Source: Candidatus Peregrinibacteria bacterium CG_4_9_14_0_2_um_filter_41_14
GTDB lineage: Bacteria > Patescibacteriota > Gracilibacteria > UBA1369 > UM-FILTER-41-14
Length of the DNA stretch: 64,000 nucleotides
Assembly: GCA_002788755.1 (NCBI GenBank)
Contig: PFRW01000063.1
Span: forward strand, 13,339-77,338
Direction: 5' to 3'
Shown here: in pieces, positions 28,978 through 51,938 of the stretch
Layout: every line of letters begins with the position of its first letter
Numbering within the stretch: position 1 is the stretch's first letter
Notes under the pieces: generated by a model
The model's input: the letters and a program-made list of their open reading frames with translations, nothing else
Told to the model about the DNA's origin: nothing
Databases searched by the model: none
Translations under genes and position numbers: made by a program

Positions 28978-29054
<77 letters not shown>

Positions 29055-29224: not shown

Positions 29225-29253
29225 TTGACGCTTTACGAAGAGCACACTATATT
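29225..29253 (+). promoter_or_regulatory. Putative sigma-70-type promoter for the sigma-r4/HARE gene
   Basis: TTGACG (29225-29230), 17-nt spacer, TATATT (29248-29253). The TTG that the ORF track uses as a start codon is the -35 box. Confidence 0.45.
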
Positions 29254-29293
29254 TTATATATACATAAATATTAGTGACTTAAATCATACATAT

Positions 29294-30364
29294 ATGATAA
29301 CTAACGCTATCAGCAATACTAATATTCAATCTCTAGTTGACCCACTAGAAATATTGAACACTCTACTCAAAACATTAAACAATAAGGAACAAGAGATAAT
29401 CTCAAGACGATATGGTCTTGGTAATAAAGAAATTGACACACTTGCCTCAATTGGCAAAGATTTTACAGTTACAAGAGAACGAATCAGACAAATTCAAGTT
29501 TACGGTTTTAAAAAACTACAACGTAACGTCCATAAAACAAAACTAACCGACCTTCAAAATTGGGCACTAAATACACTTAAAGAACAAGGAGACATTGTAA
29601 CTGAAAAGACATTTGAAAACCTGCTCAAAACTAAGTTCCCACAATACAAAAACAACATTCAAGAGCTTAAATTAGCCTCAATCCTATTTAATGAGATTGT
29701 ACACGAAAATAATAAAATCAATATTCGTGTACATTTTAGAAATAGTAACATCAGCTTAAAAAGTATTAAAAATATTTGCACTACCGCACGTAAAATTCTA
29801 AAAAACAAAGCAGACAGTATGAGTCAAAATCAACTAGTGTCGCAAATTCAAGATCAAATAAAAACGGACAATTTAAATCTAAGGAAAAAATTGATTCTTG
29901 CTGCCGTAAAACTAGATCGTCGCATTAAAGTTAAATCAGACTCAATTAGTTTAACAAAATGGCGACACGTAAATCCAAAAACACTTTACGATAAAATCTT
30001 TTTTGTACTAAGAAAGCAAAAAAGCCCTCTACATTTTTCCGAAATAACAAACAAAATCATAGACAAAAAATTTGACAATAAGAGCGTCAGTCAACAAGCT
30101 GTACATAACGAACTAATTAACAGAACCGACTTCATTCTTGTTGGCAGAGGCGTATATGCACTAGCAGAATGGGGATACAAAGAGGGAACCGTAACCCAAG
30201 TAATTCAGGATATTTTGCAAACCGAAGGTCCCCAATCATATGAACAACTGCTCGACTCAGTTCTCCAACGTCGCAAAGTTAAGCAAATAACTGTTCAAAT
30301 TAATATCAACAATAAAAAGTTATTCGCGCGCGATCACAATGACGTTGTCAGTTTAATGAGTTAA
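29294..30364 (+). CDS. Sigma-70 region-4-like HTH protein with C-terminal HARE-HTH-like domain (paralogue A)
   Basis: Start re-set to the ATG at 29294 (MITNAIS). EQEIISRRYGLGNKEIDTLASIGKDFTVTRERIRQIQVYGFKKLQ resembles sigma-70 region 4.2. PLHFSEITNKI...AVHNELI...DFILVGRGVYALAEWGY resembles the HARE-HTH of the RNAP delta subunit. No region 2/3 motifs seen. Confidence 0.65.
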   Translation: MITNAISNTNIQSLVDPLEILNTLLKTLNNKEQEIISRRYGLGNKEIDTLASIGKDFTVTRERIRQIQVYGFKKLQRNVHKTKLTDLQNWALNTLKEQGDIVTEKTFENLLKTKFPQYKNNIQELKLASILFNEIVHENNKINIRVHFRNSNISLKSIKNICTTARKILKNKADSMSQNQLVSQIQDQIKTDNLNLRKKLILAAVKLDRRIKVKSDSISLTKWRHVNPKTLYDKIFFVLRKQKSPLHFSEITNKIIDKKFDNKSVSQQAVHNELINRTDFILVGRGVYALAEWGYKEGTVTQVIQDILQTEGPQSYEQLLDSVLQRRKVKQITVQININNKKLFARDHNDVVSLMS

Positions 30365-31420
30365 CTACTCCGACTCCGACAATGACGTTTTTAAGGCACT
30401 AATATGGGAATCAGCTAATTCTTGGGTAATATAACCTTGTAAAGCTAAATCTTTAATAGATTTTTCCATAGTTTGCATGCCGTCACGCATTCCTGTTTCC
30501 AGTACAGATTGAATTTGATAAGTCTTACCTTTACGAATCAAATTTTCAACTGCGTTATTAGCAAACAAAATTTCTAAAGCAGCAACACGCCCTTTCCCAT
30601 CAGTTGTTTTCAATAATTGTTGCCAAACTACAGCTCTTAAACCTTGAGCAAGCTGAGCTCTAATTTGATTTTGTTGCTCTGTTGGAAAAATATCAATTAC
30701 ACGATCTACAGATTTTGCTGCACCACTGGTATGCAGCGTAGATAAAACTAAATGACCAGTTTCTGCGGCTGTTAGAGCCAACGCAATTGTTTCATGATCT
30801 CGCATTTCACCAATGAGAATAACATCAGTACTTTCGCGCAAAGCTGCTTTTAAAGCAGTAGCAAAACTAGCTGTATGTGTTCCAACCTCTCTTTGTTGTA
30901 CTAAAGACTTTTTATTCTTATAAATAAACTCAATTGGATCCTCAATTGTCAAAATATTATATTGATACTTTCGATTTAATTCCTCCACAATCGCAGCCAA
31001 AGTTGTAGACTTACCGGAACCGGTAGGCCCTGTTATCAATACAATACCTTGTTTAAAGTCTGTAATGCGCTTGAGCTGGTTCGGCATGTTTAAATCGTCT
31101 AAAGACACAACATCCTCAGGAATCAGACGGAAAACAGCACCTATGCCTCTGTGCTGCATAAAAACATTAACACGAAAACGACCAATTCCAGGCACATCTA
31201 AGGCATAGTCAATATCCAAACTACGAGCAAAAGCAGCCTTTTGCACCTCTGTCATAGTTTCTAAGATATAAGTCTCAGCCATCTGCTTAGACAAAACCGG
31301 ATGTTGTTCAATTTGTACTAAATCACCATGCAACCTAATACCAGGTTTTACGCCAGATGAAATATAAATATCAGAAGCTTTATACTGAAATGCAGTTTGA
31401 AAGATTTTTAGAAGTTCCAT
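30365..31420 (-). CDS. pilT: Type IV pilus retraction ATPase PilT
   Basis: 351 aa. ASDIYISSG...RLHG, Walker A GPTGSGKSTT, Walker B ILIGEMRD, and TGHLVLSTLHT. Confidence 0.88.
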   Translation of the reverse strand: MELLKIFQTAFQYKASDIYISSGVKPGIRLHGDLVQIEQHPVLSKQMAETYILETMTEVQKAAFARSLDIDYALDVPGIGRFRVNVFMQHRGIGAVFRLIPEDVVSLDDLNMPNQLKRITDFKQGIVLITGPTGSGKSTTLAAIVEELNRKYQYNILTIEDPIEFIYKNKKSLVQQREVGTHTASFATALKAALRESTDVILIGEMRDHETIALALTAAETGHLVLSTLHTSGAAKSVDRVIDIFPTEQQNQIRAQLAQGLRAVVWQQLLKTTDGKGRVAALEILFANNAVENLIRKGKTYQIQSVLETGMRDGMQTMEKSIKDLALQGYITQELADSHISALKTSLSESE

Positions 31421-41924: not shown

Positions 41925-44384
41925 CTAAATCTCCGCACCAATTCTTCGTATAATTTCTCGAGTTACAAACTCTGCATCACGACCATACTTTAAACGAGAC
42001 AACTGTCTAAACGCCTCAGCAACATCAGGATCACCTTTTTCGGCATAAGGATTTAAAGGGATAACACTAAAAGGACGACTTGGTTGCGTATCGATACTTA
42101 ACTTCATTACTGCTTTAAATTTATCAATGTTAATCAGATCTTGCTCTGTAAACACAGGTGACATTTCTCGCGCCATATACTCTGCATCTTGCGCACCAAT
42201 TTTATAACACATCATAGAACCAACGTTACCAAAGACGGCATTTTTAATTTTTTCGTCATTCTTTTCGCCAACTAACTGATTAATATACTGATGCGCCAAA
42301 TTAAGACTCAAACGGTACTTACGAGCTTCAGACAAAATCGATTCAATACTGTCTGTAATATAATTTTGAAACTCATCGATATATAAAAAGAAATCACGAC
42401 GATCTTCTTTGGCAATTTTCTGCCGTCTCAAAGCCGCCATTTGCAGCTTAGAAACAATAATCAAACCGAGTAACTTAGAATTTAGCTCACCAGTCTCACC
42501 TTTCGATAAATTCATCAACAAAATTTTTCCTTCCTGCATCACATTCGTAAAATCAAACGAAGATTTTTGCTGACCAATAATGTTACGCATCATTGTATTA
42601 GTAACGAAAGCACCAAATTTAGCTGCAAAGTAGGGGATCATTTCCTGCTTTTCTCGCGCTCCGGTATTGGCCATCTGATTCACCCAAAACGATTTCACAA
42701 TTGGATTTTTTACTTTTTCAACTTTTATTCTCTGAAATTCATCGTCTGTAAATAAACGAACAATATCAGTTATGGCTCCACCATCGGGGTCGTCCATTAA
42801 TGTTAAACAACCATTACGGAAATAATCTTGAATACGTGGACCAAACACTTCTTCGTTAAACAATTTAATCATAATATTCATCGCATCAGAAGCCACTAAA
42901 TCCTTTTCAGCTTCTGAATCAGCTTCCAACAAATTTAACCCCATAGGCCGCTCCAAATCAGCAGGATTAAAGTAAATGACATCATCTGCACGTTCGCGGG
43001 GGATAAAAGGCATAATGTCATCAATTAAGGACCCGTGGGGATCAATAACACATAAACCGGCACCATTACGCAAGTCTTGCCGAATCATACTTTGAAAAAT
43101 TGAAGACTTACCGGTACCGGTTTGCCCAATCACATAAAAATGGCGAAACCGATCCTCATTTTTCATACGCACTTCTGTTTTCTCACCACGATAAATATTA
43201 TGACCAAGCAAAATACCTTCTTGCGGCAAATTAGCTGGTGGTGGTGCCACCTTGTAATTTTGCCAAGCAATATTTGGCGTTTGATTATAACGAATATTCG
43301 GTAAATGAAACAATGACGTTAACTCTGTAGAAGACAAAATCATTTTTGGCATTCGTAGTCTATTAAACAAAGTTCGATTAAATTTACGCAAAACAAAATC
43401 ATAAACCAAACTCTTTAAATTTGTATACTTAACAACAGTAAAACCATTACCACTTGCATAAGAAAACTGTGTAAACGCACCAACAATCGAATCAATTGCA
43501 CCCTCGGTATCTCGCTTTGTTGGACCTGCAGTGACAACTCTTATGACAGTTTCAAATCCTACTTTGGTACTTTTTTCTTCCATCGCTTTAATTTCTTCCT
43601 CAGCAAGTTGAGTCATTCTACCTGCAGGTGAATCAGTACCTTCAAAAGCATCCGGCCCTTTAACTACAGCATTAAATAATGTCACAATCCATTTGAGAGG
43701 ATTAAGCCATTGCACCCAGCTACCGCCTTCTTTTTGATTAATTTTTTCTTGAGCCAAATCTCGACCTTTCTTTTGCCAATCATTAGTCATTGGCTTAATC
43801 ATAATTTGCAACGCTGCCCCCTCATCATCACCAATTTTAGAAAAAGCATTAGTTAAATTATTAAGCGGATCCGCATTTAAATATTCGTAAGTTCGCAAAG
43901 GCATAACAAACTCTTGACCCAAATTTAAATACCGACCCGACACCTTACAATTAGCCGAAAAAATATTATAGTCCGGCACTTCTTCCACGTACGAATCCGG
44001 ATAATAACTTGTTACAAGTTTTTCAATATAATCGGCAAGCTCTGGCGGTGTCACAATGTAAAAATAGATTTGCCCCTCTAATACAACATATTCTAAAGAC
44101 AAAAAATACTGTCCTTTAACCTTAGCAATCCATTTACTAGAGTAAAGACCATAAAGTGCCTCATAAAACTGTGTCATTACGCCAAGCGATTGCTTAAAAT
44201 CCTTAGCTTGATCATTTTGCTTTTCCAAATCTTCCTTGGACTCCTTTTTAGGAATCGCAACTCGCAAAAAAGTCATACGATAGCTACGCCTCAAATTAGT
44301 GTAATAACGCACAGCCAGTTTTAAACCGACCCCTATAACCAATAATAGAGCGATCGAAGCCAAAACTAGCAAAACAATTTCCAT
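41925..44384 (-). CDS. VirD4/TraD/TraG-like membrane-anchored P-loop ATPase (type IV coupling-protein family)
   Basis: 819 aa. N-terminal TM helix and a roughly 400-aa domain of unknown type. Walker A GQTGTGKSS followed by CVIDPHGSL, Walker B FFLYIDEFQNY, and RKYRLSLNLAHQYINQL. The motif order resembles coupling proteins, but HerA/VirB4-like alternatives are not excluded. Confidence 0.5.
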   Translation of the reverse strand: MEIVLLVLASIALLLVIGVGLKLAVRYYTNLRRSYRMTFLRVAIPKKESKEDLEKQNDQAKDFKQSLGVMTQFYEALYGLYSSKWIAKVKGQYFLSLEYVVLEGQIYFYIVTPPELADYIEKLVTSYYPDSYVEEVPDYNIFSANCKVSGRYLNLGQEFVMPLRTYEYLNADPLNNLTNAFSKIGDDEGAALQIMIKPMTNDWQKKGRDLAQEKINQKEGGSWVQWLNPLKWIVTLFNAVVKGPDAFEGTDSPAGRMTQLAEEEIKAMEEKSTKVGFETVIRVVTAGPTKRDTEGAIDSIVGAFTQFSYASGNGFTVVKYTNLKSLVYDFVLRKFNRTLFNRLRMPKMILSSTELTSLFHLPNIRYNQTPNIAWQNYKVAPPPANLPQEGILLGHNIYRGEKTEVRMKNEDRFRHFYVIGQTGTGKSSIFQSMIRQDLRNGAGLCVIDPHGSLIDDIMPFIPRERADDVIYFNPADLERPMGLNLLEADSEAEKDLVASDAMNIMIKLFNEEVFGPRIQDYFRNGCLTLMDDPDGGAITDIVRLFTDDEFQRIKVEKVKNPIVKSFWVNQMANTGAREKQEMIPYFAAKFGAFVTNTMMRNIIGQQKSSFDFTNVMQEGKILLMNLSKGETGELNSKLLGLIIVSKLQMAALRRQKIAKEDRRDFFLYIDEFQNYITDSIESILSEARKYRLSLNLAHQYINQLVGEKNDEKIKNAVFGNVGSMMCYKIGAQDAEYMAREMSPVFTEQDLINIDKFKAVMKLSIDTQPSRPFSVIPLNPYAEKGDPDVAEAFRQLSRLKYGRDAEFVTREIIRRIGAEI

Positions 44385-50322: not shown

Positions 50323-50407
50323 GCCGAGGTGGCGAAATTGGTAGACGCGCTGGTCTTAGGAACCAGTGGGGCAACCCTTGAGAGTTCGAGTCTCTCCCCC
50401 GGCACCA
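50323..50407 (+). tRNA. tRNA-Leu (anticodon TAG), long variable arm, CCA encoded
   Basis: Acceptor GCCGAGG/CCCCGGC with one A-C mismatch. Anticodon stem-loop CTGGT-cTTAGga-ACCAG. Long variable arm (TGGGGCAACCCTTG), T-loop GTTCGAGT, 3' ACCA. Confidence 0.9.
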
Positions 50408-50453: not shown

Positions 50454-50483
50454 TTGACAGAACGTCAACTATGGCGGTATCAT
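50454..50483 (+). promoter_or_regulatory. Putative sigma-70-type promoter for the second sigma-r4/HARE gene
   Basis: TTGACA (50454-50459), 18-nt spacer, TATCAT (50478-50483). The -35 box is embedded in the small palindrome TTGAC-agaac-GTCAA. Confidence 0.4.
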
Positions 50484-50517: not shown

Positions 50518-51609
50518 ATGCAATTCGCAGGAAACAACACCTCAAACATTAGAACATTAAATCTTCCAGAGATCCTACGGGATCTTTTTATTGTCCTAAA
50601 TGACAGAGAAAAAAATGTACTTGTACGTCGTTTTGCACTAGGAAACACACCAAAAGAAACATTAGAATCAATTGGAAAAGACCTGACAGTAACACGTGAA
50701 AGAGTTAGACAAATCGAAAACCTAGCCCTTAAAAAATTACGACGCACCTGTCCTACTACTGCTTTTCATCTAGTTAATCAATTAAGCAACCAACTTCTCC
50801 AAAATTCCGGCGGCATACTTTCCGAAAAAGGTATCATCAACAAGCTACTACAAGAACTCACACATACAACCGAAGCCGAAAAACCAATCATTCAATTAAG
50901 TTTAGAAATCAATCCTGAAATCACCAAAATCAAGAAAAGCAAAAACTTAAAAACAAGCTGGCATCTTAAATCACTTAAGATTAAAGACATCAAAACAATC
51001 ATCAATTCAGCTGTCAAAACCTTAAAAACAACAATCGACAACATCGTAGTCGAAGAATCGGATTTTATTAAGCAAGTACAACAAGATCTAGCAACACAAA
51101 AACTTAGCGTTAACCCTAAAACAATCCAGTCAACAATATCAATCGACAAAAGAATTAAACTAATTACTGAAGGATACGGACTAACTAAGTGGCGCCACGT
51201 TCAACCAAAAAGTATTCGTGACAAAGCTTTGATCATTTTAAGACGTCAAAACAAACCATTACATTTTATTGAAATTGCCAACAAAATTGGTGACGCGCAT
51301 TTTTCCAAAAAACAAGTTACAACTCAAGCTGTTCACAACGAGCTTATTCGCTATGATGACTTTATCTTAGTTGGTAGGGGACTTTACGCTTTAAGAGAAT
51401 GGGGATATATTAAAGGTACTGTTAAAGAAGTTCTTACAAATATCTTAGCTGAAGCACCTAAGCCAATGAAAAAACAAGATATTATTGCTGCGGTTTTAGA
51501 ACGTCGTCATGTTAAAATCGGCACTATCTCCCTAAATCTACAAAAATACCCTCAATTCGAAAGAATCGATCGCGCTTTGTATCGTTATAATGAAGCTCTA
51601 GAAAAATAA
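50518..51609 (+). CDS. Sigma-70 region-4-like HTH protein with C-terminal HARE-HTH-like domain (paralogue B)
   Basis: 363 aa. Colinear with 29294-30364 through the shared blocks SIGKDxTVTRERxRQI, LTKWRHVxPK, PLHFxEIxNKI, TQAVHNELI and DFILVGRGxYALxEWGYxxGTV. Confidence 0.65.
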   Translation: MQFAGNNTSNIRTLNLPEILRDLFIVLNDREKNVLVRRFALGNTPKETLESIGKDLTVTRERVRQIENLALKKLRRTCPTTAFHLVNQLSNQLLQNSGGILSEKGIINKLLQELTHTTEAEKPIIQLSLEINPEITKIKKSKNLKTSWHLKSLKIKDIKTIINSAVKTLKTTIDNIVVEESDFIKQVQQDLATQKLSVNPKTIQSTISIDKRIKLITEGYGLTKWRHVQPKSIRDKALIILRRQNKPLHFIEIANKIGDAHFSKKQVTTQAVHNELIRYDDFILVGRGLYALREWGYIKGTVKEVLTNILAEAPKPMKKQDIIAAVLERRHVKIGTISLNLQKYPQFERIDRALYRYNEALEK

Positions 51610-51611
51610 AT

Positions 51612-51938
51612 ATGAATGACTGCATTTTCTGCAAACTCGCTAATACACCGAACGCAATTATTGCTGAGAACCAGCATGCCTTCGCAATTAGAGACATTAA
51701 CCCCAGTGCACCAATTCATTTACTTGTTATTCCCAAAGAACACATTCGTTCACTAAACCAAATCGACGCAAAATCTGAAACAATGAATGCAATTATTAAA
51801 CTAGCACAAGACCTTAGCAACGATTACCAAATTGCCGGTTACAAACTAAATTGCAACGTTGAAAGTGCCGGCGGACAAGAGGTTATGCATTTACATTTTC
51901 ACTTTTTAGCTAAATCAAGCGATAAATCAATTGCATAG
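51612..51938 (+). CDS. HIT (histidine triad) family nucleotide hydrolase/transferase
   Basis: 108 aa. CIFCKL N-terminus and the histidine triad HLHFHFL. Confidence 0.8.
   Translation: MNDCIFCKLANTPNAIIAENQHAFAIRDINPSAPIHLLVIPKEHIRSLNQIDAKSETMNAIIKLAQDLSNDYQIAGYKLNCNVESAGGQEVMHLHFHFLAKSSDKSIA

Follow-up and report, generated by a model that had tools for sequence, protein, structure and literature searches.

A sigma region 4 followed by four predicted winged helices: a Patescibacteria protein family that may act at -35 boxes

Patescibacteria (the candidate phyla radiation, CPR) account for a large share of bacterial diversity and have tiny genomes with few regulators, and to our knowledge the control of transcription in these organisms is essentially unknown. 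The stretch of DNA analysed here (64,000 nucleotides of contig PFRW01000063.1 from Candidatus Peregrinibacteria bacterium CG_4_9_14_0_2_um_filter_41_14, hereafter the window) contains a gene, called paralogue A below, whose product joins a look-alike of sigma region 4 to a HARE-HTH domain resembling that of the RNA polymerase (RNAP) delta subunit. An initial annotation, made from the sequence alone, had described the product in these terms, had seen no sigma regions 1.2, 2 or 3 in it and had concluded that it is not a sigma factor. The locus raises the question of what such a protein is and what part it might play in transcription. Our analysis points to a family in which a copied segment of the housekeeping sigma factor is joined to four delta-like domains, and whose counterpart scores as essential in the one genetically tractable species; should the family work at -35 boxes or through RNAP, it would count as a general transcription factor that defines the lineage.

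The open reading frame and both peptides quoted in the initial annotation were found in the translation of 29225-30364. The gene, its promoter and the predicted domains of its product are as follows (positions are those of the window; WH, winged helix):

29294-30364, + strand: coding sequence of paralogue A (356 residues and a TAA stop), sigma region 4 and then four HARE-type winged helices
29225-29253, + strand: sigma-70-type promoter of paralogue A, with -35 TTGACG at 29225-29230, a 17-nucleotide spacer and -10 TATATT at 29248-29253
29336-29533, + strand: sigma region 4 (residues 15-80; 4.1 and 4.2) with recognition helix VTRERIRQIQ, from Pfam, Foldseek and phmmer
29543-29749, + strand: WH1 (residues 84-152), a variable winged helix, slightly acidic family-wide, from AlphaFold2 secondary structure and hhalign
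29750-29965, + strand: WH2 (residues 153-224), a variable winged helix with a charge of +12 in paralogue A and a weak likeness to the Rok winged helix, from AlphaFold2, hhalign, charge and the WH_Rok score
29975-30175, + strand: WH3 (residues 228-294), the Pfam HARE-HTH domain and the most conserved winged helix (QAVHNELI, GRGxY, WGY), from Pfam, NCBIfam and conservation
30182-30361, + strand: WH4 (residues 297-356), a conserved fourth HARE-like winged helix, basic family-wide, from hhalign, conservation and charge

The frame 29225-30364 given by the ORF caller opens on a TTG at 29225, the first base of the promoter. TTGACG-N17-TATATT agrees with the consensus at 10 of 12 positions and, this being a real promoter, the TTG 'start' is its -35 box, as had been recognised in the annotation. 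The N-termini of homologues line up with the ATG at 29294, indicating that the true coding sequence is 29294-30364.

Pfam places Sigma70_r4 (PF04545) at residues 24-76 (E 1.4e-11, 44.1 bits against a cut-off of 24.1), the sole HTH model for these residues, and no match at E<=1 was obtained in paralogue A with the models of sigma regions 1.2, 2 and 3 (PF00140, PF04542, PF04539) or with that of GerE/LuxR. A phmmer search of the PDB returned sigma region 4 chains alone, and the NCBIfam models of RpoD, RpoS and MzaA match the protein only by their last 60-80 positions, which is region 4; for MzaA, the MZA anti-phage sigma factor, the match scores 60.7 bits against a cut-off of 800 and is confined to model positions 645-726. 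AlphaFold2, given an alignment of 34 sequences, produced a confident model (predicted local distance difference test 91.9, predicted template modelling score 0.76) with a helical region-4 domain at 17-79 followed by helix-helix-helix-wing units at 85-150 (WH1), 155-220 (WH2), 231-290 (WH3) and 300-354 (WH4); winged helices take up all of residues 84-356, and a sigma region 2 or 3 fold is absent. The region-4 domain superposes on solved sigma-4 structures with a root-mean-square deviation (rmsd) of 1.1-1.5 A at 37-44% identity (Foldseek against the PDB), among them sigma-4/beta-flap-tip chimeras and Taq sigma-4 bound to -35 DNA, and is RpoD-type by structure. With regions 2 and 3 missing by hidden Markov model (HMM) and by predicted fold, paralogue A is, on these models, not a sigma factor by itself. 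Both alternatives raised in the annotation, an N-terminal HTH of the GerE/LuxR kind without a HARE fold and a cryptic region 2 or 3, were looked for and neither was found. Primary sigma factors (RpoD/SigA, RpoS) share with the family the fold of region 4 and its T-R-E-R-x-R-Q recognition residues, but carry region 4 at the C-terminus, whereas in the family it is N-terminal and regions 1.2, 2 and 3 are missing; lacking these, the protein would be unable to bind the beta' coiled-coil or to open the -10 element.

The Pfam HARE-HTH model (PF05066) matches residues 230-293 over model positions 2-71 of 71 (E 3.6e-10, 40.5 bits against a gathering score of 25.9), and a delta-like HARE fold is present in the AlphaFold2 model, as anticipated for the C-terminus. 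The Lys/Asn-rich middle of about 150 residues, left unassigned in the annotation, is not a linker: AlphaFold2 and hhalign predict it to form two folded HARE-like winged helices. When sub-alignments of the winged helices were compared by hhalign, probabilities of 94.5% (WH1-WH2), 90.6% (WH2-WH3) and 93.7% (WH3-WH4) were obtained, indicating that the four are homologous HARE-type repeats, and in paralogue C, a further copy in the same genome, the Pfam HARE-HTH model lands on the WH4 position. Thus, the notion of two RNAP-linked HTH modules stands as far as the types of module are concerned, but the HARE-type repeats number four and the fourth lies after the Pfam HARE-HTH. For the winged-helix part, Foldseek returned from the PDB only generic tandem arrays with high rmsd (UFL1/DDRGK1, the SelB C-terminus, Dcc1, RPC62). 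No whole-chain structural match to paralogue A was found in the PDB by Foldseek or in the viral structure library BFVD, and PADLOC and PHROGs match its region-4 part only; a phage or defence origin was rejected on these grounds.

The phyletic distribution of this architecture, which the annotation had left to be established, is that of a large Patescibacteria family. Searching 5.8 billion proteins with paralogue A gave 1853 matches; the best 120 of these are all 334-375 residues long and most have both Pfam domains recorded, while the few with names are called 'hypothetical', 'DNA-directed RNA polymerase delta subunit' or 'Sigma-70, region 4'. A label given to the family is 'sigma factor-like HTH DNA-binding protein'. 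With WH1-WH4 alone as query against 1.84 billion cluster representatives (clusters at 50% identity), 1041 clusters were matched at E<=1e-3 and 692 at E<=1e-10; among the best 150 listed, nearly all are 335-400 residues long with the winged-helix part in the same position, and the shorter ones look like fragments. Judged from these searches, the architecture is fixed across about 1000 sequence clusters. Paralogue A is 35-65% identical to members over 90-99% of its length and fits the family pattern ([TS]RERxRQ, HNELI, GRGxY).

Named full-length relatives come from Peregrinibacteria, Saccharibacteria (including Nanosynbacter), Parcubacteria/Paceibacterota and Kaiserbacteria. No member from outside Patescibacteria is named and the non-CPR matches listed cover region 4 only, which does not prove absence elsewhere; in the scan of genome contigs behind this, made with two patterns, one of them a region-4 motif, the sole non-CPR locus inspected (L036, Clostridiales) is a full RpoD. 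A full-length member was found in about 185 (~60%) of 301 sampled Patescibacteria genomes, and in about 112 there was only a match at E ~1e-20, which is the region 4 of RpoD. The idea that genomes without the family (~38%) hold divergent versions lacking sigma-4 was rejected, as a WH3-WH4 profile detected none in 30 and all 6 of the positive controls. CPR sigma inventories that count family genes would be inflated, because these genes are not alternative sigma factors. At the stringent threshold most genomes have one copy, a genome of the same order has two and the source genome has three:

29294-30364, + strand: paralogue A, in a lineage-specific, class-specific clade of the tree
50518-51609, + strand: paralogue B (363 residues), same architecture, grouping with single-copy genes of other Patescibacteria in the midpoint-rooted tree
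L009 1447-2502 (another contig): paralogue C, the third copy of the source genome

In a 154-sequence tree, the three fall into separate well-populated clades. The B clade has single-copy genes from other classes as its neighbours, which makes B the apparent ancestral orthologue and A and C apparent class-specific duplicates, a reading that depends on midpoint rooting.

One counterpart is covered by published transposon sequencing. Southlakia epibionticum SEML1_0294 (1050 bp, 349 residues; Prokka label 'RpoS') has PF04545 at 27-72 and PF05066 at 225-283 and has been parsed as a tri-helical and three winged domains; it is flagged as a core family (1) and as Patescibacteria enriched (1), and the transposon sequencing calls it essential (ES/ES/ES): of 24 insertions counted in the input DNA, 1, 1 and 2 were recovered (Wang et al. 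2023, PMC10633639 Tables S1 and S2). The text of that paper does not mention SEML1_0294. Its gene order (topA, hypothetical, 0294, TraD-like) is that of the Nanosynbacter locus, whose 350-residue product aligns full-length to paralogue A. Membership of SEML1_0294 in the family rests on architecture, length and gene order, and the label 'RpoS' is a mis-annotation. It has the same architecture as paralogue A but is a single-copy gene of Saccharibacteria, whereas paralogue A is one of three and belongs to a class-specific clade. The family is not mentioned in the main text of Meheust et al. 2019 under sigma, transcription or DNA-binding terms, and full-text literature searches found no functional description of it. 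The architecture is, then, already visible in databases, often mislabelled as a sigma factor or delta subunit, and as a functional entity is undescribed.

As the locus-derived family sequences had been picked by the TRERxRQ motif, conservation was re-scored on 120 full-length representatives found via WH1-WH4 alone. In this set the recognition helix reads TRER[IVL]RQ in 107 of the 120 and SRERxRQ in 10, with CRERVRQ, SYERIRQ and SKERIRQ occurring once each. The -35-reading residues of primary sigma factors ([TS]RERxRQ), counted in 118 of the 120, are nearly invariant across the family; we take them to be T583, R584, E585, R586, R588 and Q589 in sigma-70 numbering, the readers of the -35 hexamer. 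Beyond the helix, E32, R39, T49, L50, G54 and K74 (presumably E555, R562, T572, L573, G577 and K597 of E. coli sigma-70) are kept in at least 87% of 154 members, and R39, L50 and G54 in all 154. The RpoD of the same genome is complete (380 residues) and has a matching recognition helix, VTRERIRQIE; its region 4 is identical to that of paralogue A at 26 of 66 residues, and up to 30 of 53 are identical in some family members. By sequence comparison, the module is evidently derived from rpoD, being a copy of its 3' end that has changed little. Since the base-reading residues of primary sigma factors are retained, the simplest inference is that region 4 reads TTGACA-like DNA, and the suggestion of a -35-like-site binder in the initial annotation gains support from their near-total conservation in a sample collected through the winged helices.

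Across the 154 members, the conservation hot spots are the region-4 recognition helix, WH3, and the WH3-WH4 junction together with helix 3 of WH4; WH1 and WH2 are the least conserved domains. Family mean net charges are +4.7 for region 4, -2.5 for WH1, +2.5 for WH2, +3.7 for WH3 and +4.4 for WH4. The conserved basic modules are region 4, WH3 and WH4.

Paralogue A is thus a lineage-specific member of a Patescibacteria non-sigma family, and from the sequence evidence we put at about even the chance that it serves as a general, RpoD-derived factor binding -35-type boxes at housekeeping promoters. Region 4 would bind TTGACA-like hexamers, the same boxes as RpoD reads, and WH3 and WH4 would make further contacts with flanking DNA or with RNAP; the protein would then be a general factor at RpoD-type promoters that occupies or shares -35 boxes and in this way tunes initiation. 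The three paralogues of the source genome have probably divided the role among themselves, and some members, paralogue B among them, may be autoregulatory, the -35 box of their promoter lying in a TTGAC-N4-5-GTCAA palindrome.

Most family genes across Patescibacteria have a canonical TTGAC[AT]-N17-TAnnnT promoter 20-110 nucleotides upstream of the start codon (27 sites were found). In the window, one of these contains an inverted repeat:

50454-50468, + strand: -35 box of the paralogue B promoter inside the palindrome TTGAC-AGAAC-GTCAA, a candidate operator for two region-4 domains

This is one of only two such N5 palindromes in the 960-kb genome. A -35 box within an inverted repeat was observed at four family promoters, those of paralogue B (TTGACAGAACGTCAA), a Nanosynbacter member (TTGACTTTTGTCAA), the L106 locus (TTGACTTAGAGTCAA) and a Peregrinibacteria member with 7-nucleotide arms. 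By a fixed rule, the 27 family promoters include 3 with a palindromic -35 box, and 106 other promoter-like sites include 1 (Fisher p=0.026); because the test is post hoc, the excess gives a mere hint of autoregulation by paired region-4 domains. A regulon marked by TTGAC-Nx-GTCAA palindromes was rejected, as 0-3 sites were found per spacing against ~0.6 expected and none was enriched genome-wide.

Several observations weigh against a general factor at -35 boxes. TTGAC palindromes are not enriched across the genome and most family promoters are without them. The family is not universally required, as ~38% of Patescibacteria genomes do without it, and the essentiality is that of a counterpart in another class, Saccharibacteria, not of paralogue A. 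No conserved operon or neighbourhood was found among the loci compared, and surroundings that are not conserved provide no functional link. Occupying the -35 boxes of RpoD would repress, which fits an essential gene poorly unless binding is selective or cooperative. Finally, the conservation of region 4 could come in part from its fold or from beta-flap contacts rather than from DNA reading.

An alternative is an RNAP-bound accessory. Mimicking sigma-4, region 4 would dock on the beta-flap tip of RNAP, whether core or elongating, while a HARE domain would bind RNAP like the N-terminal domain of delta, modulating sigma exchange, recycling or elongation with no specific reading of DNA; a mimic or competitor had been suggested in the initial annotation and is plausible as a mechanism. 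The positions L28, E32, R39, F/Y40 and L75 are kept in 78-100% of family members; we take them to be L551, E555, R562, F563 and L598 of E. coli, near the flap-tip pocket in sigma-70, and the region-4 module may retain this pocket. Essentiality and single-copy status also suit a part of the core machinery. The delta subunit (RpoE) of Bacillota has its domain in the same HARE-HTH family as WH3 and is the nearest solved relative by profile: the NCBIfam delta model for low-GC RNAP (TIGR04567) matches residues 231-297, which are not N-terminal, with 29.6 bits, below its curated cut-off of 42, and a WH3-WH4 profile finds RNAP delta (8x6g_E) at a marginal E of 0.03. However, delta combines one HARE domain with a long acidic tail, whereas the family has four HARE-like repeats, a sigma-4 head and basic WH3 and WH4. 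The long polyanionic C-terminal tail that is the hallmark of delta is absent; a folded winged helix forms the C-terminus instead, and its net charge averages +4.4 over the family. Moreover, a pure protein-docking module would have no need of nearly invariant DNA-reading residues. We consider the RNAP-bound accessory a doubtful but serious possibility; it and the -35-box factor could both be true.

A further alternative is a split or unorthodox sigma factor of which the protein would be the region-4 half; a partner, or the winged-helix array itself, would then bind the core and open the -10 element (as in SigO-RsoA, Tn916 Sig7-Sig8 or winged-helix arrays of the TFE/RPC62 type). Region-4-only subunits have precedents: in B. 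subtilis SigO with RsoA and Tn916 Sig7 with Sig8, as in the family, region 4 is carried without region 2. In those systems, however, the region-2 partner is encoded by an adjacent gene and the roles are accessory or tied to a mobile element, whereas the family has four extra winged helices, no conserved partner or neighbour, and a counterpart listed as core and essential. That counterpart scores as essential in an organism where region 2 (PF04542) is annotated for RpoD alone (PMC10633639), which speaks for an unorthodox sigma and at the same time leaves no region-2 partner. The tandem winged-helix RNA polymerase III subunit RPC62 is among the weak Foldseek matches, but RPC62, SelB and Dcc1 are generic matches of high rmsd, and a new sigma would not need a recognition helix that repeats the specificity of RpoD. 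In the source genome, the region-2 genes other than rpoD are ordinary or decayed extracytoplasmic function (ECF) sigma genes (a 199-residue ECF sigma, a truncated 155-residue ECF-like ORF and a broken pair of 115 and 97 residues), and a split sigma was rejected as the leading idea; we now regard it as improbable. The decayed-looking ECF genes lie at L002 1390-1857 (155 residues, ending just inside region 4) and L004 1205-1782 (overlapping ORFs for a 115-residue region 2 and a 97-residue region 4). That a regulator other than a sigma factor can reuse a sigma-derived domain is known from PhyR of Alphaproteobacteria; its sigma-like domain consists of a degenerate sigma-2 and sigma-4 and traps an anti-sigma factor, whereas the family keeps its DNA-reading residues intact, with no anti-sigma factor in evidence.

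Having five domains of DNA-binding type and being basic overall, the protein might instead structure the chromosome as a nucleoid-associated protein, its five HTH modules coating or bridging AT-rich DNA with no direct link to RNAP. The WH_Rok model scores 19.7 bits on WH2 of paralogue A and 29.8 bits, above its cut-off, in the Nanosynbacter member, the gene adjoins topA in Saccharibacteria and the promoter is a strong consensus one, all of which would fit such a role. Non-specific coating would not, however, be expected to conserve the -35-reading residues so strictly, and WH1 and WH2, the latter being the Rok-like domain, are the least conserved parts of the protein; we judge this explanation to have a slim chance.

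A bolder proposal is that the family is an essential RNAP-associated general component of Patescibacteria transcription and a new class of bacterial initiation factor, in which the rpoD-derived region 4 would hold the beta-flap, the -35 box or both, and a rigid array of four delta-like winged helices would take over work that other bacteria leave to different parts, for instance handling of promoter DNA upstream or downstream of -35, sigma recycling or even opening of the kind performed by regions 2 and 3. If so, the three Peregrinibacteria paralogues would be a small set of alternative 'sigma-like' specificity factors. We think this unlikely, and return to the factor acting at -35 boxes as the favoured reading.

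With its own consensus promoter, the paralogue A gene appears to be monocistronic, set between a tRNA gene and a convergent pilT:

28978-29054, + strand: tRNA-Ala(GGC), 240 nucleotides upstream of the paralogue A coding sequence and on the same strand

The convergent pilT occupies 30365-31420 and its TAG stop adjoins the TAA of paralogue A with 0 nucleotides between them (30362-30367). No terminator-like hairpin was found at this junction, and with the stops directly adjacent the two transcripts must overlap or end within each other's genes. A convergent pilT is also present at a relative with 51% identity. Pairs of TrmB-family winged-helix genes (250 residues) lie directly upstream of two other relatives of paralogue A (L113 2951-5818 and L115 3506-5844), and an OmpR-type gene is upstream of the family gene in one case.

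In Saccharibacteria the family gene stands between topA and a TraD/VirD4-like coupling ATPase (L019 1419-7710; Southlakia SEML1_0293-0296, PMC10633639 Table S1). A TraD-like gene is three genes away from the family gene in another class (L114), and in the window a VirD4-like gene (41925-44384) lies 6-12 kb from paralogues B and A. A HIT-family gene (HxHxHxx; 51612-51938) begins 3 nucleotides past the stop of paralogue B and, given this gap, is probably co-transcribed with it.

All three paralogues were found within 75-240 nucleotides of a same-strand tRNA gene: tRNA-Ala (28978-29054) is upstream of A, tRNA-Leu(TAG) (50323-50407) is upstream of B and tRNA-Val is downstream of C (G000:C12:20548-20624; L110 2631-2707). 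With 33 tRNAs in 960 kb, the naive chance of this is ~5e-6. tRNA-Leu(TAG) also adjoins B-clade genes at two more Peregrinibacteria loci (L016 and L097), in the opposite orientation, and no tRNA link of family genes was seen in other classes.

A role as replacement for a missing C-terminal domain (CTD) of the RNAP alpha subunit was also considered and rejected, as the RpoA of the source genome has its CTD. Another RNA_pol_A_CTD-like domain (27.7 bits, above cut-off) was observed in a 461-residue open frame that is not RpoA, at G000:C46:3886-4080 on the minus strand, ~9 kb before the start of the window; it is a further case, in the same genome, of an RNAP-derived DNA-binding module reused in a different protein.

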